64,000 nt of DNA. It comes from Roseiflexus sp. GTDB taxonomy: Bacteria > Chloroflexota > Chloroflexia > Chloroflexales > Roseiflexaceae. A program made the translations under genes and the position numbers. The notes beneath the pieces are model-generated. The model was not told the DNA's origin, did not search any database, and saw only the letters and a list, made by a program, of their open reading frames with translations. This document shows, piece after piece, positions 2,281 to 17,190 of the stretch (positions are counted from its first letter, which is position 1; the number at the start of each line of letters is the position of its first letter). Location of the stretch: contig JAGHYV010000002.1 in assembly GCA_017743475.1 (NCBI GenBank), positions 13,844 to 77,843 on the forward strand. Direction: 5' to 3'.

Positions 2281-3566
2281 CTACAACTGCTGCCGCTGCG
2301 CCAGTGCATACGCGATGCCCTGTTGCAGACTGCGCAGCGCAATCATATCCTGCATTTCGGCGCCAATATGCACCAGCGTCTGTGCAACCTCGGCACTGAT
2401 GCCGCTGAGCACAACGCGCGCGCCCAGCATCCGCGCCGCCTGTGCTGCCCGGATCAGCGCGCCAGCGACCTGTGTATCAACTACTCTGACGCCTGTAATA
2501 TCCAGGATGGCAATATCAGCGCAATGGGTCGCAATGCCTTCGAGCAGTGTTTCCATAATCTGCTGCGCGCGGCGGCTATCAATCGTACCGATAATCGGCA
2601 TTACCACCACCCCTTCGGCAATCGGCATCAGCGGCGTACTCAGTTCACGCAGCGCCGCCTGTTGCGCCTCGATCACTTCCTGTTGCAGCGCACGTTCACG
2701 AATGGCTTCTTCCGCGCGTCGTCGCAGCGTGATGTCGGTAAACGACACCATACCGTACACAATGCGTCCCTCTGCATCCCGAATCGGCGCGCCGTGGATC
2801 TCGATCAGTATCCGACCATCAGGGCGCTCGATCTCCATATCATCAACTGATGACGTCTCTCCACTCAATGCGCGTACCAGCGGCATACGCTCTGTAGGGT
2901 AGAGTTGATCAGTTCCGGCTACAAAAGCACGATAAACCTCGGCGAGTTGCCCGACGGTGACGTCGGACATAATACCTTTGCCAAGTATCTCAATAGCGCT
3001 GCGGTTAGCATAGAAGGGACGCCCGTCCGGTTCGACGACGAAGACTCCGACCGGTAGCGCATCGAGAAAGCGGAGCAGGCGTTGCTCACTGTCGCGCAGC
3101 GTCGCTTCGACCCTGCGACTCTCGCTCATATCGCGCATAATTGTCGAGTAGTGGGTGATTGCTCCGTCAGCATTTTTGTGCGCAATGATGACCTGTGAAA
3201 CCGGAATTTCCCTCCCCTGCGGGTCGAGCACTGCCGTATTGCCGCTCAAACCCCCTCGCGTGCAGCGTGCGGCAATCCCTGGTTGAGGATCAGATCGGCT
3301 GCCCAGGCTGGATGAAACTGGGGAATGCGCGGCTCTTCCGACAGAGTATCCACCTCGCCGAGTAGACGCCGACCGGCCGGATTGATGAAGATCACCCGCC
3401 CTTTGCTGTCGGCGGTGCTGATCACGTCTGGTGTATATTCGATAATCGCCTTCAGTCGTTCAGTGACTTCATCATCCTGCTGACGCTGCGCTAGCAATGC
3501 CTCAAGTTCGGCAACGCGACGGCGCAGGCGTTCCAGTTCGTCAGCAGGATCATTCGGGGATGACAT
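2281..3566 (-). pseudogene. PAS-PAS-STAS (RsbR-like anti-anti-sigma/stressosome-type) sensor split by a 1-nt frameshift
   Basis: ORF 3246-3566 (coiled coil plus first half of a PAS) ends AREGV*. ORF 2281-3249 continues SGNTAVLDPQGREIPVSQVII, a second PAS, then STAS (LSTPLMPIAEGVVVMPIIGTIDSRRA...DITGV). The junction GTT TG AGC is one G short of GTT TGG AGC (V-W-S). Confidence 0.8.
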
Positions 3567-4777: not shown

Positions 4778-5087
4778 ATGGCTACTTCGCAGACTGTGTC
4801 AGATTGAACCCTGGCTAATCCAGTGGGACTCCCGAGGCAATCCTTACTTGTGGGCGGAAATGTCCGAGGTGCCTGCTGGCGTCCCGCTGCCTCCAACAGA
4901 AGGTGAGTTGGTGCAACTTCTCGAGCATACGTTCGCCCGGCTCGTTAGAGCGCCGATAGGGTCGCCCGAATCGTCCATTTTCGTTGAGCGTTACTGTCAC
5001 AGTGGCATGTCTACAGGTCTGATCAGTTTTGCCTTCTGGCAAGAAATTGGGTTGCCACTCTCGCGGGCTCGCTATCTCGGAGCCTGA
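4778..5087 (+). pseudogene. Integron cassette gene of unknown function (~100 aa, apparent frameshift near 4800)
   Basis: ATG lies 4 nt after the attC R' core (MATSQTV), then the frame shifts into the ORF-track frame QIEPWLIQWDSRGNPYLWAE...RARYLGA*. The TGA lies inside the next attC R'' (GCCTGAC). Confidence 0.55.
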
Positions 5088-5136
5088 CAATTCGTCCGAG
5101 CCAATACTGCGCCGCAGTGTAACTCGGGCGTTAGAG
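5082..5136 (+). other. attC site (short, aadA7-like type, degenerate)
   Basis: GCCTGACAATTCGTCCGAGCC...ACTGC-GCC-GCAGT...TAACTCGGGCGTTAGAG resembles the classic GTCTAACAATTCATTCAAGCC...TAATTCAAGCGTTAGAC (16/21 and 13/16 by my alignment against the remembered consensus). Confidence 0.75.
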
Positions 5137-5215
5137 CTTTTCCGAATAACCCGGTGACTTGCACGGCGATCACGCCACAAGCGACAGGGAGAAAGGCAGG
5201 ATACTGGATAGGCTC

Positions 5216-7357
5216 TCACTGCCGTGTATCAATCCGGCTACGCATATCGAGCGCAAACAGACGCACACTGATCGGAGCGCCAGCGCGCGCGGGATCAGGG
5301 GTGGCAGGCGCCTGCAATGTCAGAACGTGCTGACCGGGAGGAAGCAGGAGGTGCAGTGTGCGCGCCGGTGCGCGTCCGGAAAGAATATCGAACGTGCCTA
5401 GAGACGCGCCATCCAGCGACCAGGTGAGTGGTCGTGGATGGGCATATGCTTCCAGCCAGCATGTGAGGCGCACAGGCGTCGGAGCAGGAGAAGGGTTGAA
5501 CAGACGCACCTCAGCCCGCTCTCCCATCCAACGCCAGCGAACGTCGCTGTCAGGCTGGCGTTCAAGCGGTTGCCAACCCTCCCCCAGAAATGCAATCGGT
5601 GAAACGGGCCAGGTATCCGGCATTGCGTAGACCTCCAGCGTTTCATCAACAAAGATCGGCGGCGGTATGCCCAGATCAGCCAGCAGGGGACGCACGCGCG
5701 CAAAATACTCGTCCTTATTGCTCTCCAGGTCCATCGTGATGTAGCGGATGCGGTATGCAGCAAGCGCCCGTCGTCCGGATTCGGGCCACGTGGGTAAAAC
5801 CACGTCATGTCGCTCGACTTCGCCGAACTGGATGTCGCGTATGCCCGGAGTGTACTGCGCAAATGGGTATGCTGGCGGACGAGCGACATACCCGCCGATA
5901 ATTGGCCATCTGTGAACCATTTGGGGCGTCAGATTTTCGCTGCGATTGATGTTGATGTACAGCGGCAGCGGCATCAGCGCGCCATCGGGCGGCGGAAGCG
6001 TTGCGTAGAACGGGTGGATGCGGCGCTCGACGATAGGGTGAGGTCCGGCATAGCCGTCGATGCCCACAACTGCAGCAATCAACACTGCCACAGCAATCCA
6101 CGCGCGTCTCCGTGAGCTACGAAACAGGCGCGTTTGCAGCCCCGCTCGCACGCCGTATGCCGCCAGTACCGCCAGACACAGGCTGACCATCACTGCCATG
6201 TGGTTGGGGCGCTGCCCGGCGCGGATGCCTGGCAAATCCTGAATCAGAGCGTACGGCAGCGGCAGACCGGTATGCCAGCCAGCGATCTTCAACTGTGGTC
6301 CCAGCGCCAGCAGCAGACACGCCAGCGCCAGCAGAACCCAGCGCCACGCATTGCGTCTGAAGGCGAGCGCGCCCACCGTTCCCAGGCTCAACGCCACCCA
6401 TCCCAGCGCCACGTTCCAGATGGGCGCATCGGGATAGATCTGGTTGCGCCAGGCGCGCACTGCCGGACCCCACCACGGATTGACCGGGCTTGGCAGAAAC
6501 ATATCGACCAGGTCGGCGGAGCGTTCGTACTGCACCTGACGCATGTCCCACATTCCATCTTCTGCGCGCGTTGCCAGGCTGCTCAGCGCTGGCGCCAGCG
6601 CCAGCACCCAAACGATAAGCGGGGACGTCCCCCACGCAAACACCCGCGCTCCTTGCAGCACCCGCTGATTGTGCTCAGATGAACGAAAGGCCCCACACCC
6701 CCAGATGCACGCCGCGCATCCAGTATAGAGGGCGGCAAACAGTCCGTAGTACCAACTGCCCAGACTGACCCACACAAGCATTGCCCCGGCTGCCAGCGCC
6801 CAGCGCCACGATGGGCGTTCGAGGAGCAGCAGCAGGGTATAGGCGTACCACGGAAGCCAGTGGATGGCGGCGACTTCCAGATTGCCGTCGATCACTTTTT
6901 CCACGTGATAGGGCGAACAGACAAAGGTGGCGCCGGCAACCAATGCGGCTCGTTCGTCGCCGGTCATCCGCCGTGTGAATAAGAACGTTGCGTATCCGCC
7001 GATGGTGAAACTGGTGAGCACGACCCAGTTCACCGCAGCAATCGATCCGAGGGTAAGGGTCACCGGCAGTGCCAGGATGCCCTGGCTGAAGCCGATAGGC
7101 TGCCAGAAGAGATCAATGCCGTCCGGGTAGAAGAGCAACGGAGAAAAAAACGGGTTGCGCAGCGACGTGATTGCATATGCGATCCACCACAGGTTCCAGG
7201 CGTTCTGATAGGCGTCAACACCATCGACAGCGCCAATAACGCCGCGTGTCAGGTTGATCGTCAGCGGCCAGGTGAGGATCACGCCGAGGAACGAGTAGAC
7301 TGCCAGGGAGATCAGGTGGAAATGTATGCCTATCATCGAAGTGCGCTGTGCATCCAT
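5216..7357 (-). CDS. Multi-pass membrane GT-C-like protein (YfhO/PMT-like) with C-terminal GxGW..E..RW beta module
   Basis: ORF 5216-7438, probable start at 7357 or 7336. Contains YQNAWNLWW, LFYPDG, many TM segments, PIIGGYVARPP and LGEGWQPLE...RWRW; paralogous to 23801-25975. Confidence 0.75.
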   Translation of the reverse strand: MDAQRTSMIGIHFHLISLAVYSFLGVILTWPLTINLTRGVIGAVDGVDAYQNAWNLWWIAYAITSLRNPFFSPLLFYPDGIDLFWQPIGFSQGILALPVTLTLGSIAAVNWVVLTSFTIGGYATFLFTRRMTGDERAALVAGATFVCSPYHVEKVIDGNLEVAAIHWLPWYAYTLLLLLERPSWRWALAAGAMLVWVSLGSWYYGLFAALYTGCAACIWGCGAFRSSEHNQRVLQGARVFAWGTSPLIVWVLALAPALSSLATRAEDGMWDMRQVQYERSADLVDMFLPSPVNPWWGPAVRAWRNQIYPDAPIWNVALGWVALSLGTVGALAFRRNAWRWVLLALACLLLALGPQLKIAGWHTGLPLPYALIQDLPGIRAGQRPNHMAVMVSLCLAVLAAYGVRAGLQTRLFRSSRRRAWIAVAVLIAAVVGIDGYAGPHPIVERRIHPFYATLPPPDGALMPLPLYININRSENLTPQMVHRWPIIGGYVARPPAYPFAQYTPGIRDIQFGEVERHDVVLPTWPESGRRALAAYRIRYITMDLESNKDEYFARVRPLLADLGIPPPIFVDETLEVYAMPDTWPVSPIAFLGEGWQPLERQPDSDVRWRWMGERAEVRLFNPSPAPTPVRLTCWLEAYAHPRPLTWSLDGASLGTFDILSGRAPARTLHLLLPPGQHVLTLQAPATPDPARAGAPISVRLFALDMRSRIDTRQ

Positions 7358-7430: not shown

Positions 7431-8297
7431 TCACCCATCGCGGCGCTTCCGCAACGCCAGCATCACATAGAGCGGATCCGACCGGTCGAACCGTTCTTCG
7501 AGCGGATGGATCAGCCATGCCAGCAGCAGATCCTTCAATACGAAACGCCGCCAGAATCTGGTGAGACAGGTTTCGTGATACCTTCCGTTGAGGATGCTGC
7601 GCCCAAATGCGTGTCGCTCGACGATGTCGGCGTGTGCCGGTTCGATGTACGTTCGTCGAATATCGTCATCGGTGTAGAAGCGGAAGAACGACCCCGGCTT
7701 TCCCTCCTGCACGAACGCGTTCCGGGCAACCTGTCGGAACGGTCGAATGCCGGCAAAGAACGAACGCCGCTCGCTGCTGGTGAATGGCAACGTCAGCGCA
7801 ACGATGCCGCCTGGAGCGAGCACGCGCCCTATCTCGCGACCGGCTGCAACGTCGTCGGGAATGTGTTCGAGCGACGAGACCGCACTGATAAATGGCGCCG
7901 ATCCATCGCGGAACGGCAAGCGGGTAGCGTCTGCCACGACTGGCAGCAGGTCGCCGTCACCAGGGCGCGCCGTTGCACGTCGTTTGTCGCGCTGCCAGCG
8001 CACACGACGCGCTTCAATCTCGACGATCACGACATTCACGCCCTCTTTTGCCAGCATATGCGGGAACGATGAGGTTCCAGAGCCAATGTCAATCACCGTA
8101 TCGCCACGCGTTACGCCCAGCGCCCGTGTCGCCCAGGGATACTCGATCAGGCGCCAGAGACTGAAATCATTGACCGTTTCCCACAGGATGCGCAGCCCAT
8201 TCAGCGCAACCTCATACCGCAGACAACGCCACGCCGATAAACGGATCGGAGTGCGGCGCACCGGTGATTGTTCGACAGCAGACCCGGAAGTGACCAT
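7431..8297 (-). CDS. Class I SAM-dependent methyltransferase (Methyltransf_11-like)
   Basis: VIDIGSGTS, VADATRLPF and SSLEHI motifs; ORF 7431-8366 with a likely downstream start. Confidence 0.8.
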   Translation of the reverse strand: MVTSGSAVEQSPVRRTPIRLSAWRCLRYEVALNGLRILWETVNDFSLWRLIEYPWATRALGVTRGDTVIDIGSGTSSFPHMLAKEGVNVVIVEIEARRVRWQRDKRRATARPGDGDLLPVVADATRLPFRDGSAPFISAVSSLEHIPDDVAAGREIGRVLAPGGIVALTLPFTSSERRSFFAGIRPFRQVARNAFVQEGKPGSFFRFYTDDDIRRTYIEPAHADIVERHAFGRSILNGRYHETCLTRFWRRFVLKDLLLAWLIHPLEERFDRSDPLYVMLALRKRRDG

Positions 8298-8344
8298 AAC
8301 GCATATTCCTCTACACAGGGCGCTCCAGTATACCATACATCGCC

Positions 8345-8373
8345 TTGACAGCAATGCGATAGTCATGTACTAT
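8345..8373 (+). promoter_or_regulatory. Sigma70-type promoter of the small-ORF/rpmB/rpsR operon
   Basis: TTGACA (8345-8350), 17 bp, TACTAT (8368-8373). Confidence 0.75.
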
Positions 8374-8379
8374 TCATAG

Positions 8380-8402
8380 TTGATTGAAACTATCATTATC
8401 AT
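8380..8402. promoter_or_regulatory. Fur/Zur-like operator
   Basis: TTGATTGAAACTATCAT(TATCAT) just downstream of the -10. The reverse complement of 8382-8400 matches the Fur box GATAATGATAATCATTATC at 14/19, and it matches 17174-17190 at 13/17. Confidence 0.6.
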
Positions 8403-8421
8403 ATCGAGGAGCACGCCGGTC

Positions 8422-8655
8422 ATGGCAGAGAAGAAATCGAAAACCGACGTTACTGCCCGCGATAAGACGGGCCGGGTGACCAACCGGTACTGCAACCATT
8501 GCGGGCAGCGGATTATGAATGACCGTGAGATGGTTGTGATCATGGACGGTCGGCGGCGGAACAAGACGTACTACCGACGCGATTGCTTCAACCGCCTGTT
8601 GAGCGCGGATCGTGAACTGGGGCTGGATGGTTCGCAGACCTGCCCCCTGCGCTGA
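8422..8655 (+). CDS. Small basic hypothetical protein with CxxC
   Basis: GAGGA RBS at 8406-8410, then MAEKKSK...RYCNHCGQR...YYRRDC; first gene of the operon. Confidence 0.7.
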   Translation: MAEKKSKTDVTARDKTGRVTNRYCNHCGQRIMNDREMVVIMDGRRRNKTYYRRDCFNRLLSADRELGLDGSQTCPLR

Positions 8656-8678
8656 TATGCCTGTCGAGGGGAAACCAT

Positions 8679-8954
8679 ATGGCAACGTGTGATCTTACCG
8701 GCAAGAAAGTCGCCTTCGGGCGCAACATTCGCCACAAAGCGTCCGGGGGATGGGCGCGCCGCGCTCCCAAAACCAACCGCACCTTCCGACCGAATGTTCA
8801 TCGGCACACGATATACGTGCCGGAGATCGGGCGCACTATCACGCTCAATCTTTCGACGAAGGCGCTGCGGACGATCAACAAGAAAGGGTTGATCGCCGCC
8901 GTGCGTGATCAGGGGCTGTCGGTCGAAGCATTTCTCAAGGAGCACCTTCGATGA
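8679..8954 (+). CDS. rpmB: 50S ribosomal protein L28 (Cys-poor paralog type)
   Basis: [19 protein letters not shown]...[11 protein letters not shown]...STKALRTI; only one Cys. Confidence 0.9.
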
Positions 8955-9217
8955 CGCATCAGGACGGATCTCACCGTATGCGCGGACGTGGGAGGCGCAA
9001 AAAAGTCTGCGAATTTTCGCGTCTCGGCATCTTGCCGGACTACAAAGACCCGGAGCGGCTCAAACGTTTTCTTGGTCCGACGGGGAAAATCCTGCCGCGC
9101 CGTCGCACCGGTCTGAGCGCAAAAATGCAACGTAAATTAACCATTGCTATCAAACGAGCGCGACATATGGCGCTTTTGCCATTCGTCGAGCGCAGTATCA
9201 CCGACCGGCGACGCTGA
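8951..9217 (+). CDS. rpsR: 30S ribosomal protein S18 (Cys-poor paralog type)
   Basis: KKVCEFS...[49 protein letters not shown]; no CxxC. Confidence 0.92.
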
Positions 9218-9241
9218 ACCGCAGTTGTGGGTGCGTATCAA

Positions 9242-9331
9242 GAATTGAATCCTCAATCTTCATGAGCCCCACAATCAGAACGTTCGGCATACCGGATGAG
9301 TCGCCGGACTACCGCGCAAATACCGGTTTCT
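9242..9331 (+). repeat. ~90-bp degenerate intergenic repeat (second copy 15085-15176)
   Basis: GAATTGAATCC...TCTTCATGAG...CGTTCGGCATACCGG-ATGAG...GACTAC aligns with GAATTAAGTCC...TCTTCATCAG...CGTTCGGCATGCTGG...ATGAG...GACTAC. Confidence 0.6.
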
Positions 9332-9492
9332 GCATAATGTTGGCCCCTCCGCGTCGTTGTCGCCGCGTGGGTGACAACAACAGTTGCGTATCTCCACGTT
9401 TATGCCGACAGTCAGGCGACGTTGTTTCCCCGCCCTCTGTTTCTCGACCCTGTACGCCGCTTTCCAAATCAACAGAAGTCGCCCAACCTTGA

Positions 9493-9520
9493 TTGACACG
9501 TGCGTATCGTTCTGTATACT
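9493..9520 (+). promoter_or_regulatory. Sigma70-type promoter of the His-rich gene
   Basis: TTGACA (9493-9498), 16 bp, TATACT (9515-9520). Confidence 0.6.
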
Positions 9521-9578
9521 AGAGGTAACAGACGCAGGCGCGCCGGATGAGCCTGCCAGGTGGAAAGGAGCCAGAGTG

Positions 9579-9902
9579 ATGTCGCATACGGTTCACGAAC
9601 CGCATCCTCATGTCCACAGCGAGCATTGTGGGCACATTCGCATTCTTCACGACGGGCACGTGGATTATCTGCATGACGGACATCTGCACTACCCGCACGA
9701 GGGGCATTATGATGAGCATGTAATTGCAGTCAGCGCCGATAACCCCGATATCTGCGCTCCCATTGCATGCCAGTGCGGACATGATGGATGCGGACATCCA
9801 CTTGTTCCACATGGTGACCACTACGACTATCTGGTAGATGGACGTTTGCATCACTCCCACGGTGATCACTGCGATGACCATGGTCCGGTGACTGTGGTGT
9901 AG
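9579..9902 (+). CDS. His/Cys/Asp-rich small metal-binding protein with an internally duplicated motif
   Basis: AAGGAG RBS. Two copies of CGH...H(D/G)(G/D)HxDYLxDGxLHxxHxxHxDxH in 107 aa. Confidence 0.8.
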   Translation: MSHTVHEPHPHVHSEHCGHIRILHDGHVDYLHDGHLHYPHEGHYDEHVIAVSADNPDICAPIACQCGHDGCGHPLVPHGDHYDYLVDGRLHHSHGDHCDDHGPVTVV

Positions 9903-10174: not shown

Positions 10175-10744
10175 TCATCGCAGATCGAACGTTCGCGCGC
10201 GAGGACCGCGATCACTCGCCTCGACAGTGACCGAGATCTGATCACCCTCCTGGAGTGACCGCCGAACCTGGCTGAAGAGCGATCCGTGGACATACACATC
10301 GAACTGCGGATGATCGACGCGCGCAAAGAGGAACCGCCCTGCCGGGTCGATACGCACAATCGTGGCATTGACCGGACCGGATGGGAGTGGACCGGTATAC
10401 GGCTCCCGGTCACGCCGGGAACGTTCGCCCGACCATCCACGCGACTCTCCGCGTGGTCGATCATGCGAGCGTGACCAGTCTTCGGAACGACGTGAACGGG
10501 ATGCGCTGCTTGCCTCAATGGCTTCGTCGGTGATCCTGCCATTCCCCGACACATCGTGGGGGCAGACGCGCCCACCAGTAATATCGGTCAGACTTCGTCC
10601 CTCCTTCCGTGCCCGACGCCCGGCAGGGCAACGGGTCGGTTCGTTCGTAAAGCCTTTCTGCGCATAAAACTCCTGCTCGCCCGCCGTGAACACGAACTCG
10701 CCGCCGCAATCCTTACAGGGAATGTGCTTGTCCTTGAAACTCAT
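10175..10744 (-). CDS. Zinc-ribbon (CxxC-x17-CxxC type) protein fused to a cold-shock/OB domain
   Basis: N-terminal CKDCGGEFVFTAGEQEFYAQKGFTNEPTRCPAG; C-terminal GRFLF...DVYVH...LQEGDQI...GPRA resembles CSD RNP1/RNP2. Confidence 0.75.
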   Translation of the reverse strand: MSFKDKHIPCKDCGGEFVFTAGEQEFYAQKGFTNEPTRCPAGRRARKEGRSLTDITGGRVCPHDVSGNGRITDEAIEASSASRSRRSEDWSRSHDRPRGESRGWSGERSRRDREPYTGPLPSGPVNATIVRIDPAGRFLFARVDHPQFDVYVHGSLFSQVRRSLQEGDQISVTVEASDRGPRARTFDLR

Positions 10745-11024
10745 AGATGGGTGTCCTTACTGTCTCCTTGTCATCCTGATAGTCCCGGATGCGGTCGCCC
10801 TCCCGGAAGACGAGCGAGGTGAGGTTTGGTACGCCTGCCATCAACCTGTCCACGATGAGTGGATAACCGATGCCGGGGTGCAAATGATCTTGTCTATCAG
10901 TTGCAATTTCTACTATACCCGATTGAGGAAACACATGTCAAGGAAATGAACCAGAAAAACGATACGGTCTATCGATGCAGCGTACCGATCACCAGCACGC
11001 TGCATCGATGCATCGGAACTGCAG

Positions 11025-12224
11025 CTACTTGAGGAAGAAGGTGGTATACAGCCCAACCAGGATGAAGAAGGCGAACCACGCGCCCAGCATACCGGTGGCA
11101 ATCGACCCAAATTGTTCTACGCGCGGCGACACGCTGCCATCGCGCTTCGTCCCGCCTGATTGATACAACACCAGCGCCAGGTACGTGACGACGGCAACGC
11201 CGACGATGGTGGTTACGCCAAAAATCAGGATCGACCCCCAATCTATGATGTAGGGGTACTCAGATACGCGATACCCAAACCGTTCCAGAGAGACTGCACG
11301 GATGACTTCCCGCACAACGCCGACCGTCATCAGCGATGCAAACCAGACCAGCAAGGTACGCGGTGCGTGCTGCATCGGTTGCTTCAAGAAGAAGAAATAG
11401 CTGGTCAGCGCCAGTCCAAGACTCGTCAGCGCAACCCCAAGTGGTATGCCGATGCCGAACTCGACGCCTTCCGTCGCTGCCCATAGCAGGCCGGCCAGTG
11501 TATACAGCGGACTGACGACCAGACCGATCAATCGTCCTTGCCTGGCGACCCACTGCATAAAGGGCGCATCCTCTTCAATACGCCGGAAATACCATGCGAA
11601 CAGGGTGAGCACCACTGCCAGGCTCAAGCCCGCCTGCAATGGTAGAAGAAACGTCAGGCGCGGGATATTCCATGAATGGAAAACAACACCGCGCGTGTCG
11701 ATAACACCGTTCGGCGCGTACCATTCCATCCAACGCTCAGGACGGATCGACACCGATGCCAAGACGTGCATCACCCATCCGGCGAAAAAGAGCAACACGA
11801 ACGACGCCACTGCCGACCAGAGCAGTTTTCCGTCGGCGCTCCCTTTGAGATAAAACAGATACGCCAGACCGTAGCCACCCATCATCACAAAGATGAAACT
11901 CACCGACCAGAAACCGGTCAAGGCATTGCTTGCGTACCAGAGAGGGTCATGGATCGTCTGCACGAAGAGCAGCGGCGCAATTCCCGTCACAATGCCGAGT
12001 CCAACCGCGTTGGGCGTCAGCCGTGCTGCGACGCGCCCCAACCGCAGGCGATAGTCAGTCGGGCGCAGGAAACAGGCAATCGAGCACGCGCTCGACCCAA
12101 GCGCCAGGGTTACAAAGAAGATGTGCAAGACCCATGTCACCACCAGCAATACCTGTAATGCAGGCGGATAGAACGGTGCACCCAGCGGGTCGCGCATCCG
12201 TTCGAGCATATCGCCAATGTCCAT
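11025..12224 (-). CDS. CydA-like membrane subunit (second paralog) of a cytochrome bd-superfamily complex
   Basis: ~10 TM segments with WVLHIFFVTLALG, NAVGLGIVTGIAPLLFVQ and REVIR, echoing CydA helices; directly downstream of 12228-13634. Confidence 0.65.
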   Translation of the reverse strand: MDIGDMLERMRDPLGAPFYPPALQVLLVVTWVLHIFFVTLALGSSACSIACFLRPTDYRLRLGRVAARLTPNAVGLGIVTGIAPLLFVQTIHDPLWYASNALTGFWSVSFIFVMMGGYGLAYLFYLKGSADGKLLWSAVASFVLLFFAGWVMHVLASVSIRPERWMEWYAPNGVIDTRGVVFHSWNIPRLTFLLPLQAGLSLAVVLTLFAWYFRRIEEDAPFMQWVARQGRLIGLVVSPLYTLAGLLWAATEGVEFGIGIPLGVALTSLGLALTSYFFFLKQPMQHAPRTLLVWFASLMTVGVVREVIRAVSLERFGYRVSEYPYIIDWGSILIFGVTTIVGVAVVTYLALVLYQSGGTKRDGSVSPRVEQFGSIATGMLGAWFAFFILVGLYTTFFLK

Positions 12225-12227
12225 GTC

Positions 12228-13634
12228 TTACCTCCTGACTTGCGCCTGGGGTTGTGGCGCATACTGCTGTTGAACGAAGTATTCCAAATACAGCGCCATT
12301 GCCGCCCGTTCTTCGGGTGTGCCGACAAACGGGTGCATGTAAGGGAAGGCGCCAATGCGCTGCAGGTACGCTTCAATCTTCGGTGCAGTCGTCATCTTGC
12401 GTCGCTCCAGCAACTGCGCCAGCGAACGCAGTGCCAGGCGCTGATCAAAAATAGTGATCGCCGTCTGATTGCTGACACTGTGGCATGCCGCGCACTGCTG
12501 AATGACCAGCACACGCCCCATCATAACCTGATGATCGGGCAGTCCGGCTGTCGCTCCAACCGAAATCGTCTCTGGACGTGGCAGAAACGGCAGTGAACCG
12601 AGCATACCAGTCTCGTTCAACGGCTCCTCTTCGCTTTGAATTCCACGCGCAGGGATATCGTTGAAGACCAGTTGATTCGAGGACATATAGCCAGCAATAA
12701 TGTCTGGCTTACGAATGACTTCACGGGTGCGCTCCGCGCCAAAAATGGCAGCAAACAGCACTAGCATCGCCCCAAGTGCAATGATCGGATGCTGACGACG
12801 CGGCATTGCCAGCGCAAACAGCAACCCCAGGAAGGTCGCAATCAGCCCACCGACAATGACCGTAAATGTAATAGGTGGAATGGCTGGAGAGCGCAGAATA
12901 GTTTTTGCATGATCCGGAAGCACAGGGTAGAACCAGAGGAACCAAATGCCAAGTGCGATGATCAGCCCGCCGAGCCCTATTGCTGCCGCTGTACGGATGA
13001 TCTGCTCACGCGCGAAATATCCTTTTGGCAAGCTGGTAGCGATTAGCATTACCCAGGCTGCAGTGATGGTGAACATCAGGAAAAACCGCGTGAGCAGCTG
13101 CGGCCAGAAGGTGGGGTTGAAGAAACCGTTCAGGCTCTCACCAGTCGTAAACCAGAGTCCCGGTGTCAACTTGAACGACAGAATGCCGACAATGAGCGTC
13201 AAGGTACCGGTGCCTCCCAACGCCAGAATCCACGCCAGCCGCAGGTGCGTTCGCGGACTGACCCGCCCGAAGGTGTAATAGTAGGCGATAATCCCCACGA
13301 CATCGATCAGGAACATGTACCATTCTGAACCCCAGTAGAGCACAAAATTGTGGATGAGAGTGGAAATACCACGTGGGTTGGCAACAGTCGTAGTTTGCCA
13401 GATTCCCACGCCTGCCAAAGCGCCAAAGACGTATGCGAACACCAATAGCCCCAGTGCACTCCGTTTGAGATAGACGTACAGTTCCGGGCGATTTTCGTAC
13501 ACTGCGCGCCGTTCCAGGTACAGGTTGAACCACGCTGCCGCAACCGTCAGGTGCGAAACAAGGACATGGAAGGCGGACACAATAGCGACGAACATCGCCG
13601 AGTGAATGAAGATACCTTCCCATACCGGATACAT
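12228..13634 (-). CDS. CydA-like membrane protein with C-terminal c-type cytochrome (CxxCH)
   Basis: AFHVLVSH, WGSEWYMFLID and ERTREVIRKP are CydA-like; no Q-loop; CAACH and a distal Met (YMHPF) near the C-terminus; GGAG RBS. Confidence 0.75.
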   Translation of the reverse strand: MYPVWEGIFIHSAMFVAIVSAFHVLVSHLTVAAAWFNLYLERRAVYENRPELYVYLKRSALGLLVFAYVFGALAGVGIWQTTTVANPRGISTLIHNFVLYWGSEWYMFLIDVVGIIAYYYTFGRVSPRTHLRLAWILALGGTGTLTLIVGILSFKLTPGLWFTTGESLNGFFNPTFWPQLLTRFFLMFTITAAWVMLIATSLPKGYFAREQIIRTAAAIGLGGLIIALGIWFLWFYPVLPDHAKTILRSPAIPPITFTVIVGGLIATFLGLLFALAMPRRQHPIIALGAMLVLFAAIFGAERTREVIRKPDIIAGYMSSNQLVFNDIPARGIQSEEEPLNETGMLGSLPFLPRPETISVGATAGLPDHQVMMGRVLVIQQCAACHSVSNQTAITIFDQRLALRSLAQLLERRKMTTAPKIEAYLQRIGAFPYMHPFVGTPEERAAMALYLEYFVQQQYAPQPQAQVRR

Positions 13635-13683
13635 AGGTGCTCCTCGTGATTGCTCAGCGGCGACATATCGTGATATACTTCAC

Positions 13684-13703
13684 GATTATTTGCAATAATA
13701 ATC
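13684..13703. promoter_or_regulatory. Perfect 7-6-7 inverted repeat overlapping the predicted -10/TSS (candidate repressor site)
   Basis: GATTATT-TGCAAT-AATAATC; the minus-strand -10 TATTAT is at 13700-13695. Confidence 0.55.
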
Positions 13704-13722
13704 ACAAAGTATCCGGCTGTCG

Positions 13723-13736
13723 TTGCGCTGGCGCAA
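13723..13736. promoter_or_regulatory. Crp/Fnr-family (NnrR-like) box at -41.5 of the cydA-like promoter
   Basis: TTGCG-CTGG-CGCAA is a perfect 5-4-5 palindrome. Its centre is -41.5 when TATTAT (13700-13695) is taken as -12..-7. Confidence 0.7.
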
Positions 13737-13786
13737 GTTTGCGAGGGCATCGGGAGAGATTATTGAACAGTTGCAACGGTGCGATA

Positions 13787-14473: not shown

Positions 14474-14493
14474 AGTGTAATCCTTTTGGGGGC

Positions 14494-14539
14494 GACCGCG
14501 AGATACGCCTGATCCTCCACAACAGGCGCGTCTCGCGTC
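14494..14539. other. Strong stem-loop between the CxxxC ORF and the crp/fnr gene
   Basis: CGCGAGA (14497-14503)/TCTCGCG (14531-14537) and CGCCTG (14506-14511)/CAGGCG (14523-14528); no U-tract. Confidence 0.6.
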
Positions 14540-14588
14540 TCCCGTCAGTTACAATGAAGTAACGGAGAAGATATGCAGGAATGCCGCG

Positions 14589-15038
14589 TTATGATAATGC
14601 TGACAGATGCAAGCGGGCAGGGCGGACGCTACGCGGCGGAGGGGTCAAGGGCGGCAGAGGTTGATGACGGGGGCTATCTTGAACAGTCGGAGTTGCGCCG
14701 ACAGGATGCAGCGCGTGTCCGATCATCAGCAATGTCGTCAGCACGATTGGGTGCACAATCTCCGGCAGATGGTGGCTCAATGGTGTCTGGTCGTCAGAAT
14801 TCAATGTCCGTTCGCCAAAATTGCAGACGAACAGCGGCAATGGCTGTGTCATAAGTCGCTGTACCCACGGCATCACCTGGCAGTGAATGATACACATCAC
14901 TGGGGCATGCAATGCGACACACCAGAAAAGGAACAGAACCAGAGCGCATTGAACCGCGCGCCGTACTGCGCGCATCGGTGGATGAAGGAGAATAACCAGA
15001 TTTGGTGTTGCCGACGAGCCCTCAGGCATCACGATCAA
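14589..15038 (-). CDS. DUF2946/CutF-like small protein (signal/TM segment, CxxxC, Pro-rich C-terminus)
   Basis: Hydrophobic ALVLFLFWCVALH, CIIHC and C-terminal PLPPLTPPPR; likely start at 14975 or upstream. Confidence 0.55.
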   Translation of the reverse strand: MIVMPEGSSATPNLVILLHPPMRAVRRAVQCALVLFLFWCVALHAPVMCIIHCQVMPWVQRLMTQPLPLFVCNFGERTLNSDDQTPLSHHLPEIVHPIVLTTLLMIGHALHPVGATPTVQDSPRHQPLPPLTPPPRSVRPARLHLSALS

Positions 15039-15084
15039 TGCGCTGTCATTTCAGATAAATGTCGAAAGGCACGATGAATTTTCA

Positions 15085-15176: not shown

Positions 15177-15378
15177 TATTGTCAATCTTCATATGCGTTG
15201 ACCTGGGTGGATCGGCGCATCTCGATAAAGGTGACGATCGGACGCACCGTCATGATAGTAGACTGTGAAAGAAAGCGCAAATCAATCGCCGCTCGTTTTG
15301 CGAGACGCTATCAGTCAATCCCCGGCATATGGTACAATGGGAGAGAAAACGCTGCTCTGGAGTAAGAAGGGCAATGCA

Positions 15379-15843
15379 ATGAGTCGTTTTCTTGACGAAC
15401 GCAGACACACGCTGCCGCCCGCAGTAACGACCCTCGCTGAACAACTTGCTGCTGCCGGGTACAAAGTCACCCAACCGCGCCTCGCAGTGCTTAAAGCGAT
15501 CACGTCGCTGCCCGGTGCATTCAGCGTTCAGGAAGTCGAGCAGTGGCTGATCGAACGTCATGAGTCGCCGGGAATCGCCAGTATCTTTCGCACTATTCGG
15601 CTCCTCTGCGACCTTGGCATGCTCCAGCGCATCCACGGTCTGGACGAGTGCCATCGGTACTGTCTGGGCGGCGGGCACAGTCACCATCTGGTATGCACGC
15701 AGTGCGGCGTTATCGAGCGCTTCGACAACTGTGGCTTGCAGGGAGTTATTTCCGGGCTTGAACAGTCCACCGGCTATCGCATCACCAGCCACGTGGTCGA
15801 ACTGTTTGGTCTATGCCCGCAGTGTCAGTCGATCACAGCCTGA
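15379..15843 (+). CDS. Fur-family transcriptional regulator (Zur-like)
   Basis: KVTQPRLAVL, SIFRTIRLL, HSHHLVCTQCG and FGLCPQC; AGAAGG RBS. Confidence 0.9.
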   Translation: MSRFLDERRHTLPPAVTTLAEQLAAAGYKVTQPRLAVLKAITSLPGAFSVQEVEQWLIERHESPGIASIFRTIRLLCDLGMLQRIHGLDECHRYCLGGGHSHHLVCTQCGVIERFDNCGLQGVISGLEQSTGYRITSHVVELFGLCPQCQSITA

Positions 15844-16026: not shown

Positions 16027-17160
16027 TTATGATCCGAATATCCGGTTGAGCAACAGTCCTAGCAGCATCACATACGCCGCATACCAGAGCACAACCTTGA
16101 TGGCGTTGATGCGCCCGATCAACCGGTCGAGCATCGCCCATTCCGGGATCGATGAGACTGTAGTTGCCATCATCGCCGCTATCAATGTTCCAATCGGCAC
16201 GATCTGGTGGAGGGCCACCAGGATCGGCCCCGTTGATGCAGCATTGATGTCGAGCGGCAACCCCAGCAGCGTGGCCGCGATCGGACCCCACCATGCAGTA
16301 CCAGCCTGCTTCAGGTACTGGACCAGCGTGAGATTGAAATTGACCAGGATGCCCGCTAGCAATCCGCTGAACAGCACGACGCCGAATAACCGTTTGAACA
16401 GGGTCCACGCCTCACGGTGCGCGCGGGTCAGGATGCTTTCTTTGACACACCCGCAACCGGGATGGTCGGGCAGGTGGCGTTGCACAAACCGCGATGGATC
16501 GAGTCCCAGCAACGGTGCAAGGTACGCCGTGGCCAGCGCCGCAGCAATCCCTGCCAGAACGTAGATGAGTGCGCCGGTCGGACCGACGATCACGAACATG
16601 AATATGATCGCGAACTCATTCAATGCCGGGCTGGCAAACAGAAAGGCGGACGAAGCGCGCTGGCTGGCACCGCCAGCAACAAGCCCGACATACAGGTTCG
16701 TCACTGTGCACGAGCAGACCGGGGTCACCATCCCCATCAGCGTCCCGCCAACGGCGCCGATCAGGTCGTTGCGTCCGATAGTGCGTTCGATCCACGTTGT
16801 GCTGATGCGCAGGCGGATCAGCGCCATGCCATACGTGGTCAAAAACAGGATGATCGGCAGTTTGAACCACTCATATATCGTGTACGATGCGGTATATTTC
16901 ACGTCGAGCGGTCCGAACGGAGTAGGCACAATCCATGCTGGCATCCAGTCGGTCAGCGCCTTCCCCAATGCTTTCCCGGTCTGCGCAATCGGCGCTTCAA
17001 AGACCGGCACGATGCTTCTGGCTTCGGCGCCTGCCAGCCACGCACTCATACTCTGGAACAACGCCATCCCGACAATCAGCGTCAGCACTGCGAGCGAAAT
17101 GATCGGCATCACGCGCTCGAACGATCCACGTGCAGCGGTCAAAGTTGGACGGTTGAGCAT
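16027..17160 (-). CDS. Predicted permease (DUF318/ArsP-like, two-repeat)
   Basis: GMVTPVCSCTV, AFLFASPALNE and a second-repeat LGLPLDI; GGAGAGG RBS before ATG 17160. Confidence 0.8.
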   Translation of the reverse strand: MLNRPTLTAARGSFERVMPIISLAVLTLIVGMALFQSMSAWLAGAEARSIVPVFEAPIAQTGKALGKALTDWMPAWIVPTPFGPLDVKYTASYTIYEWFKLPIILFLTTYGMALIRLRISTTWIERTIGRNDLIGAVGGTLMGMVTPVCSCTVTNLYVGLVAGGASQRASSAFLFASPALNEFAIIFMFVIVGPTGALIYVLAGIAAALATAYLAPLLGLDPSRFVQRHLPDHPGCGCVKESILTRAHREAWTLFKRLFGVVLFSGLLAGILVNFNLTLVQYLKQAGTAWWGPIAATLLGLPLDINAASTGPILVALHQIVPIGTLIAAMMATTVSSIPEWAMLDRLIGRINAIKVVLWYAAYVMLLGLLLNRIFGS

Positions 17161-17173
17161 ATCCTCTCCGTAA

Positions 17174-17190
17174 ATGATAGTAAATATCAT
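17174..17190. promoter_or_regulatory. Fur/Zur-like operator
   Basis: Perfect 6-5-6 palindrome ATGATA-GTAAA-TATCAT just upstream of the permease RBS. Confidence 0.65.

Follow-up and report, generated by a model that had tools for sequence, protein, structure and literature searches.

In the 64,000-nucleotide (nt) stretch of Roseiflexus sp. DNA analysed here (referred to below as the window, with positions counted from its first letter) a small open reading frame (ORF) precedes the gene of a Crp/Fnr-family regulator on the minus strand (Table 1). Judging from its conservation, this ORF is a genuine gene coding for a small membrane protein, since homologues keep its motifs, their proline codons vary synonymously and gene order is kept. 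Its family is evidently a previously undescribed one, spread over Chloroflexota and absent from the Pfam and NCBIfam libraries. By analogy with CutF and CruR of Proteobacteria we tentatively read the product as a cis-acting co-translational sensor of metal, probably copper, and hold this reading with slightly less than even confidence. An original prediction, made from the letters alone, had described the hydrophobic N-terminus, the CIIHC motif and the sequence PPLTPPPR, all of which are present; the last one, said to be C-terminal, is in fact C-proximal, with 13 residues preceding the TAA stop codon (14591-14589). The in-frame ATG at 14975 is probably the start rather than the TTG, in which case the product has 128 amino acids (aa) and begins with MRAVRR.

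The initial search returned eight relatives with 46-75% identity, all of which keep the elements FWC, VCIxHCQV.PW, QPLPLFVC[DN]FG, LPEI and PPLTPPPR. Two profile searches, one of them covering 1.8 billion representatives, extended this to 56 proteins at E<=1, and from profile searches the family comprises at least 58 cluster representatives. Homologues reach down to ~20% identity with C, H, C, P and PPPR remaining invariant. All matches labelled by organism belonged to Chloroflexota (Roseiflexaceae, Chloroflexus, Oscillochloridaceae and SZAS-1), and the scan of a genome collection returned Chloroflexota and Roseiflexus metagenome-assembled genomes. No precomputed Pfam domain was assigned to any family protein from the profile searches, comparison of 15 members with Pfam and NCBIfam at permissive thresholds gave nothing relevant, and neither NCBIfam nor PDB sequence searches with the family produced a significant match. 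For one member a non-significant similarity (E 0.23) to the NCBIfam entry LpqS_Mycobact, a putative mycobacterial copper-homeostasis lipoprotein, was registered. The pattern CACTGC-N225-252-ACNCCNCCNCCNCG, used to scan metagenomes, turned out to be too unspecific: none of the 120 stretches retrieved encoded a family member, as judged by screening with the family hidden Markov model (HMM).

In the alignment of 34 sequences the two cysteines and the histidine of CxxHC, one proline ahead of the second helix and PPPR are invariant, the third cysteine and the PxT in front of PPPR being nearly so. Codons for the prolines differ synonymously across loci (CCT CCG CCG, CCT CCT CCT, CCG CCA CCA and others), and it follows that selection acts on the peptide. 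When the window was compared with two relatives, the small protein was 72-75% identical versus 92.5% for the Crp protein and 90% for a 468-aa protein encoded further downstream, with similar identity at 4-fold degenerate sites; constraint is therefore imposed mainly at the motifs, a pattern that appears typical of leader or sensor peptides. Among 58 sequences carrying both the CxxHC and PPP motifs, the distance from the last cysteine of CxxHC to PPP has its mode at 79 residues and lies within 76-81 in 42 cases, the full range being 72-117. The part that follows PPPR in these sequences is short (mode 2, median 3.5 residues; 0-6 in most members), and the Roseiflexus branch alone regularly has 10-18 residues of variable sequence there. 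In four members (P0032, P0042, P0047 and P0050) the external loop is enlarged by Met/His-rich or His-rich runs, with 90-117 residues between CxxHC and PPP. We take the Met/His-rich or His-rich loops of some members, such as HSMPMAHAHMDHAM and NQHQHQHSHAAHIHD, to resemble Cu(I)-binding segments.

Charged residues counted over the family follow the positive-inside pattern, with 3.3 K/R versus 0.65 D/E in the N-terminal flank, 1.8 versus 3.2 in the loop and 2.7 versus 0.4 in the C-terminal part, and an orientation with the N-terminus inside, the loop outside and the C-terminus inside is therefore predicted. AlphaFold2, supplied with the family alignment, modelled helices at residues 2-43 and 74-93 with a less confident loop (predicted local distance difference test score, pLDDT, 75). 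The N-terminal hydrophobic helix was continuous in this model, and the only A-x-A-like site has proline next. Across the family helix 2 starts at a median of 36 residues before PPP and ends at a median of 17. In the predicted topology helix 1 would thus run outwards and end in CxxHC, the loop bearing the third cysteine would be external, and helix 2 would return the chain to the cytoplasm, where PPTPPPR follows.

Neighbouring genes provide the link to copper. In the loci examined (those of relatives bear numbers with the prefix L) the family gene is the first one and co-directional with what follows, the upstream gene being in every case either divergent, as in the window, L001, L005, L006-8, L018 and L021, or at least 150 nt away. 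The Roseiflexus branch (the window and L001-L013) has a fixed order of small ORF, crp/fnr, the 468-aa protein, a 399-aa membrane protein and a zf_Tbcl protein, so that crp/fnr is always the next gene; on the upstream side there is usually a divergent Fur-family gene and then an ArsP_1 permease. In L014, L016 and L018 the next gene, 28-122 nt away, encodes a 147-aa lipoprotein-type monohaem cytochrome c. The family member is followed by PCuAC, Sco1 and YtkA in L021, by Sco1 and PCuAC in L022, and by Sco1, PCuAC, a 124-aa protein and an extracytoplasmic function (ECF) sigma factor in L020. Screening of the loci with the family HMM revealed in L020 three paralogues within ~6 kb (2752-3384, 4968-5528 and 8234-8656), which lead separate groups: YtkA with CopC, Sco1 with PCuAC, and cytochrome c with YtkA. 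Such an arrangement, one paralogue per gene group, suits a cis-acting element. With Sco1, PCuAC, YtkA and CopC encoded downstream, the family stands at the head of gene groups for copper chaperones, and its copper link together with the CutF-like design is supported by analogy. The first of the three L020 paralogues (2752-3384) has lost PPPR, ending in ...ITPPLFLRPPITSAA, and retained CVFHC. In L001 a set of zf_Tbcl, S18, L28 and an 80-aa gene occurs twice (1-1812 and 10426-11857), flanking the cassette of small ORF, crp and OR-C genes, and the place taken elsewhere by the Fur-family gene, ahead of the small ORF, is occupied by a DDE transposase, which suggests duplication or mobile insertion.

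From this anatomy and gene neighbourhood we infer the mechanistic steps that lie beyond them. At the moment when PPP is decoded, helix 2 would be located in the exit tunnel of the ribosome or at its mouth, with the Cys/His site already outside. Metal bound at this site may alter how strongly the nascent chain is pulled and thereby the length of the poly-proline pause, and this length would set the amount of downstream message made or translated. The logic of CruR, whereby absence of metal would lead to a pause and the pause to expression, is favoured, given that each of the three classes of downstream genes is expected to be necessary under copper scarcity. At the window locus the coupling does not proceed through masking of the crp ribosome-binding site (RBS) by a 46-nt hairpin, considered below; a route through transcription polarity of Rho type or mRNA stability seems more plausible here, though hypothetical.

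A number of observations weigh against reading the protein as a sensor of the CutF/CruR kind. The check with the DUF2946 profile of Pfam (PF11162), proposed in the original prediction, gave no match for the window protein at E<=1 or for 15 members at E<=10; in the same library CzcI of pMOL30 matched DUF2946 weakly (E 0.026), so that the model is present there. Comparison by hhalign of the family alignment with a 23-sequence CzcI/DUF2946 alignment, which covers the CzcI branch only and not the core CruR relatives, gave a probability of 0.3%. Membership of the family in DUF2946 is thus not supported by sequence comparison, and it would be more appropriate to say that the family may work like CutF and CruR than that it belongs with them, CutF having been compared by its published motifs. 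In contrast to CutF, the family has an additional membrane helix between the metal site and PPP, and the spacing of ~79 residues differs from that in CutF (~40) and CruR (45). In the window the genes immediately downstream, crp/fnr and a cytochrome bd-like pair, are not copper genes. Within the Roseiflexus branch PPPR lies 10-18 codons before the stop, with crp another 92-424 nt further on. Folding predicts the crp RBS to be open whether a ribosome stands at PPP or not. The spacer between the two genes (78-82% identity of the window with L001/L009, versus 69-77% at 4-fold sites) bears no clear extra constraint as far as can be judged from the alignment. Among metatranscriptomes only one covered any part of the region, reaching no further than fur in a related strain, and none was found with the ORF alone as a query. 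Finally, a conserved C-terminal proline motif at a fixed spacing would equally be expected of a stable two-helix protein. The CutF/CruR-like device originally proposed is supported in part, by the forms of the CxxHC and PPPR motifs and by the copper-gene neighbourhoods of the family; homology to DUF2946 and conservation of the hairpin are not supported.

A different explanation, which we consider possible, if somewhat doubtful, is that the product persists as a small membrane protein acting in trans. It would bind copper, or some other soft metal, through its Cys/His site at the outer face of the membrane and could be a membrane-bound sensor, a chaperone or an assembly factor, without any translational arrest. 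Its cytoplasmic PPTPPPR would then be a protein-interaction motif, for instance one holding or modulating the Crp/Fnr regulator. Two predicted membrane helices with a Cys/His cluster and the proximity of genes for periplasmic copper chaperones agree with such a role, as do the non-terminal position of the motif in the Roseiflexus branch, spacers of up to 424 nt and the predicted openness of the crp RBS there; the conserved spacing would be expected of a fixed fold no less than of a co-translational ruler. However, in most members PPPR stands 0-6 residues from the stop and nothing is conserved beyond it, evolution outside the motifs is fast, and the forms of the motifs match those of an experimentally proven arrest system. 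The three paralogues, each leading its own gene group within one 6-kb stretch, and the first, co-directional position of the family gene in every locus examined also speak against a protein acting in trans. The co-translational sensor remains our preferred, still tentative, reading. Its fullest version, which we regard as rather unlikely when taken as a whole, is that Chloroflexota own membrane-inserted copper-sensing arrest peptides, a family of their own without detectable sequence relation to those known, in which helix 2, at 17-36 residues before PPTPPPR, would exert the pull and the outward-facing CxxHC with the additional cysteine would modulate it. The Roseiflexus paralogue would then gate a Crp/Fnr regulator located by a haem-only oxidase of the OR-C type and the other paralogues would gate cytochrome c or Sco1/PCuAC, the outcome being a copper-sparing respiratory switch operated by translation and not by a metal-sensing repressor of the classical kind.

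The original prediction included a hairpin in the spacer that separates the small ORF from crp, and its presence and its distance to the start codon were borne out. Two 15-nt arms (14497-14511 and 14523-14537), 87% complementary, enclose an 11-nt loop; the RNA segment 14490-14546 folds with -32.2 kcal/mol (z = -3.6), and none of 200 shuffled sequences was as good. Within the 115-nt spacer the hairpin begins ~50 nt past the small-ORF stop and comes to within 20 nt of the crp/fnr start codon, an ATG at 14473-14471. One could suppose that a ribosome paused at PPP melts this structure and unmasks the crp RBS. The strength of the hairpin and its location between the two genes speak for such a model, and so does a ~97% identical strain from a public metagenome that retains the hairpin, its single change still permitting a G-U pair. 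Against it, the hairpin lies ~90 nt past the PPP codons, beyond the reach of a paused ribosome, and the Shine-Dalgarno (SD) sequence of crp is outside the stem; in the partition-function model the unpaired fraction of this site is 0.62, rising only to 0.68 with a ribosome at PPP and to 0.67 with a ribosome at the stop codon. Besides, the 3' arm originates from a 21-nt insertion that is missing from L001 and L009, whose small proteins are 72-75% identical to that of the window; these loci have AGACGTG-aga-CACGTCT instead, a 7-bp stem with a 3-nt loop that folds no better than shuffled sequences, and L005 and L010-L013 have unrelated spacers of 332-424 nt where measured. The hairpin is evidently a lineage-specific feature and not a conserved part of the device, and we consider its melting by a paused ribosome improbable as the means of control. 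What the model retains comes from the paralogues linked to cytochrome c, where the downstream SD is predicted to be mostly paired (0.21-0.30 unpaired, opening modestly to 0.28-0.41), partly with the CCU-rich proline codons or codons just past them, a suggestive but weak indication from folding.

Scanning for promoter and terminator consensus sequences called none in the spacer between the small ORF and crp and gave nothing usable in the window, L012 or L005, and no Rfam family was matched. Two candidate elements were rejected. The palindrome GTTAC-N6-GTAAC at 14548-14563, considered as a Crp-type site, occurs once, with 0.7 occurrences expected by chance, and is not kept in L001; a C-rich stretch that might serve as a rut site, with a C/G ratio >2, is found only inside the ORF (its 3' part with the proline codons) and not in the spacer. 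Three hot-spring or mat metagenome runs (X12, X13 and X15) contain a relative in which a divergent 143-nt stretch replaces the tail and spacer (14475-14627), and this relative is ~40-140 times more abundant there than the window's own strain. The notion that the small ORF is an accidental reading frame of the kind that GC-rich DNA produces, the region being merely a promoter or leader of crp, might draw on the long opposite-strand ORFs overlapping it (14573-14854 and 14607-15077, plus strand) and on the lack of a clear SD ahead of either candidate start, but these frames have no family matches or relatives in the library scan, and the notion is refuted, with negligible probability left to it, because of the conservation pattern described above, i.e. 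residues that stay invariant in homologues of as little as ~20% identity, proline codons that differ synonymously and conserved synteny.

Table 1. Location of the small ORF, its motifs and the neighbouring elements in the window
Feature	Position	Strand	Remarks
Two membrane-protein genes 3' of crp	11025..13634	-	Fit the published OR-C1a/b description
Crp/Fnr-family regulator, 228 aa	13787..14473	-	cNMP_binding 1.8e-16, HTH_Crp_2 1.4e-16
Likely Shine-Dalgarno AAAGGA of crp/fnr	14481..14486	-	Outside the hairpin stem; predicted mostly unpaired
GC-rich hairpin between small ORF and crp	14494..14540	-	Lineage-specific; 3' arm from a 21-nt insertion
Small ORF, 149 aa from TTG	14589..15038	-	Chloroflexota family, no Pfam domain; predicted two-helix membrane protein
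13-codon tail 3' of PPPR	14592..14630	-	Length and sequence vary in the Roseiflexus branch
PPLTPPPR codons (PPP = 14634-14642)	14631..14654	-	PPPR invariant in the family alignment
Helix 2, hydrophobic, LPEIVHPIVLTTLLMIGHALHPV	14700..14768	-	Predicted from AlphaFold2 model and positive-inside charge pattern
Cys72 codon, within QPLPLFVCNFG	14823..14825	-	Third Cys, nearly invariant; predicted external loop
CIIHC codons (C49-I-I-H-C53)	14880..14894	-	Outer end of helix 1; C, H, C invariant (34-sequence alignment)
Block between divergent fur-family gene and small ORF	15252..15345		Conserved in 5/5 aligned loci (alignment)
Fur-family gene	15379-15843	+	Divergent from the small ORF
ArsP_1-family permease	16027-17190	-	Weak NCBIfam matches: SO_0444 Cu/Zn efflux, SaoE efflux transporters

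Identification of the gene downstream of the small ORF as crp/fnr, made in the original prediction, was confirmed by its domain matches (Table 1). The proposed cascade from metal to nitric oxide found no such confirmation: the Crp/Fnr protein has neither an N-terminal Cys cluster nor a recognisable sensor signature, and examination of this signature and of the downstream genes, which look like members of the cytochrome bd superfamily, revealed no link of the locus to nitric oxide. The 468-aa protein (12228-13634, minus strand) combines a weakly CydA-like N-terminal part with a C-terminal CxxCH haem c domain, its matches to Cyt_bd_oxida_I (1.4e-4) and Cytochrome_CBB3 (9.5e-4) both lying below the cut-off, and the 399-aa membrane protein (11025-12224, minus strand) has no family match. 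This pair fits OR-C1a/b, a branch of the cytochrome bd superfamily representing a haem-only oxidase type (bioRxiv 10.1101/2021.01.16.426971). The spacer between crp and the gene of the 468-aa protein (13635-13786) is 92% identical to that of relatives, far above the neutral level (~74% at 4-fold sites), and in relatives it is twice as long. It contains an AT-rich palindrome (13675-13712) with 16-nt arms (ATACTTCACGATTATT and AATAATCACAAAGTAT), which is likely to be an operator for the Crp/Fnr or the Fur-family protein.

Upstream of the small ORF the conserved block persists in loci as distant as L005 and L012 and holds two inverted elements of TGATAG type. A candidate promoter of the small ORF, missed by the consensus scan, consists of TTGCGC (15280-15275) and TATCAT (15257-15252) separated by 17 nt on the minus strand, and TGGTACAAT at 15330-15338 (plus strand) is a candidate extended -10 element for fur. 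The ArsP_1 permease adjoins the Fur-family gene in relatives too. On the other side of the locus, at 8380-9902 of the plus strand, additional genes for the ribosomal proteins L28 (8679-8954) and S18 (8951-9217) adjoin an ORF very rich in His and Cys (9384-9902) and a 91-aa CxxC protein, a set reminiscent of zinc-starvation (Zur-type) regulons.

To our knowledge, copper-sensing arrest peptides have been demonstrated experimentally only in two Proteobacteria, as CutF and CruR. If the proposed reading is true, a phylum-wide family of the same design logic in Chloroflexota would mean either a much greater age of such a device than has been assumed or its invention on two occasions. With its additional helix the family would then lend itself to examining how a poly-proline pause is tuned jointly by metal binding and by the force of membrane insertion, and in Roseiflexus the device would feed a transcription factor, so that in phototrophic organisms of mats the terminal oxidase chosen would depend on the supply of copper. 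Should the idea of arrest fail, the family would still be an unannotated conserved partner of the Sco1/PCuAC copper chaperones.

The summary of CutF and CruR motifs and modes of control in the original prediction proved accurate against the published data (PMC8456105, PMC9973294, PMC9426467, bioRxiv 10.1101/2025.02.05.636593). CutF of Rhodobacter capsulatus (118 aa) has a Sec signal, the motif C69xxH72C73 and the C-terminal P109EPEGPPPRL118; its pause at PPP depends on EF-P, is prolonged by copper and melts a stem-loop over the SD of cutO (PMC8456105, PMC9973294, bioRxiv 10.1101/2025.02.05.636593). CutF and the proteins of the Chloroflexota family are alike in being small and in having an N-terminal helix for export or anchoring, C-x-x-H-C outside (by analogy, a metal-binding site) and PPPR a few residues before the stop, as is the case in most family members; both occupy the first place in their gene groups and have copper chaperones of PCuAC type as neighbours. 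PCuAC is among the commonest neighbours of CutF-like and DUF2946 proteins, for which Chloroflexota entries are scarce (PMC9973294). By size (128-149 aa) and spacer (115 nt) the window protein falls within the published definition of CutF-like proteins (PMC9973294), and most family members clearly conform to the rule for proline position, under which the window protein, having the last proline of PPP as residue 15 from the C-terminus, is borderline. Unlike CutF, the window protein has no obviously cleavable signal peptide, its 13-residue tail is followed by a 115-nt spacer without a stem-loop over the downstream SD, and the next gene codes for a transcription factor and not for a cuproenzyme.

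CruR (BP2923) of Bordetella pertussis, a 145-aa member of DUF2946 (PF11162), has CXXC and, three residues from its end, RAPP, the spacing between them being 45 (within 1-2), and acts by Rho-dependent termination in a 162-nt spacer (PMC9426467). The family differs from it in having C-x-x-H-C and PPTPPPR instead of these motifs, and the spacer of the window lacks a rut-like C-rich stretch, its C-rich part being inside the ORF. Common to both are an upstream ORF with a cysteine motif and, at a fixed distance, a proline-containing motif of arrest type near the C-terminus, an N-terminal export signal or a helix with the N-terminus in and the C-terminus out, the first position in a same-strand gene group, a long spacer (162 nt in CruR) before the regulated gene, and downstream genes expected to be of use under copper shortage. 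For the window locus, coupling by polarity or of Rho type would be a better fit than unmasking of the SD. As to the force-sensitive arrest peptides SecM, MifM and VemP, they monitor the machinery of secretion or insertion and not metal, their arrest motifs are unrelated to PPTPPPR, and arrest in the Chloroflexota family is what we infer; still, an arrest motif near the C-terminus, a hydrophobic segment whose engagement with the membrane is timed to the arrest and control in cis over the next gene would be common to all of them.

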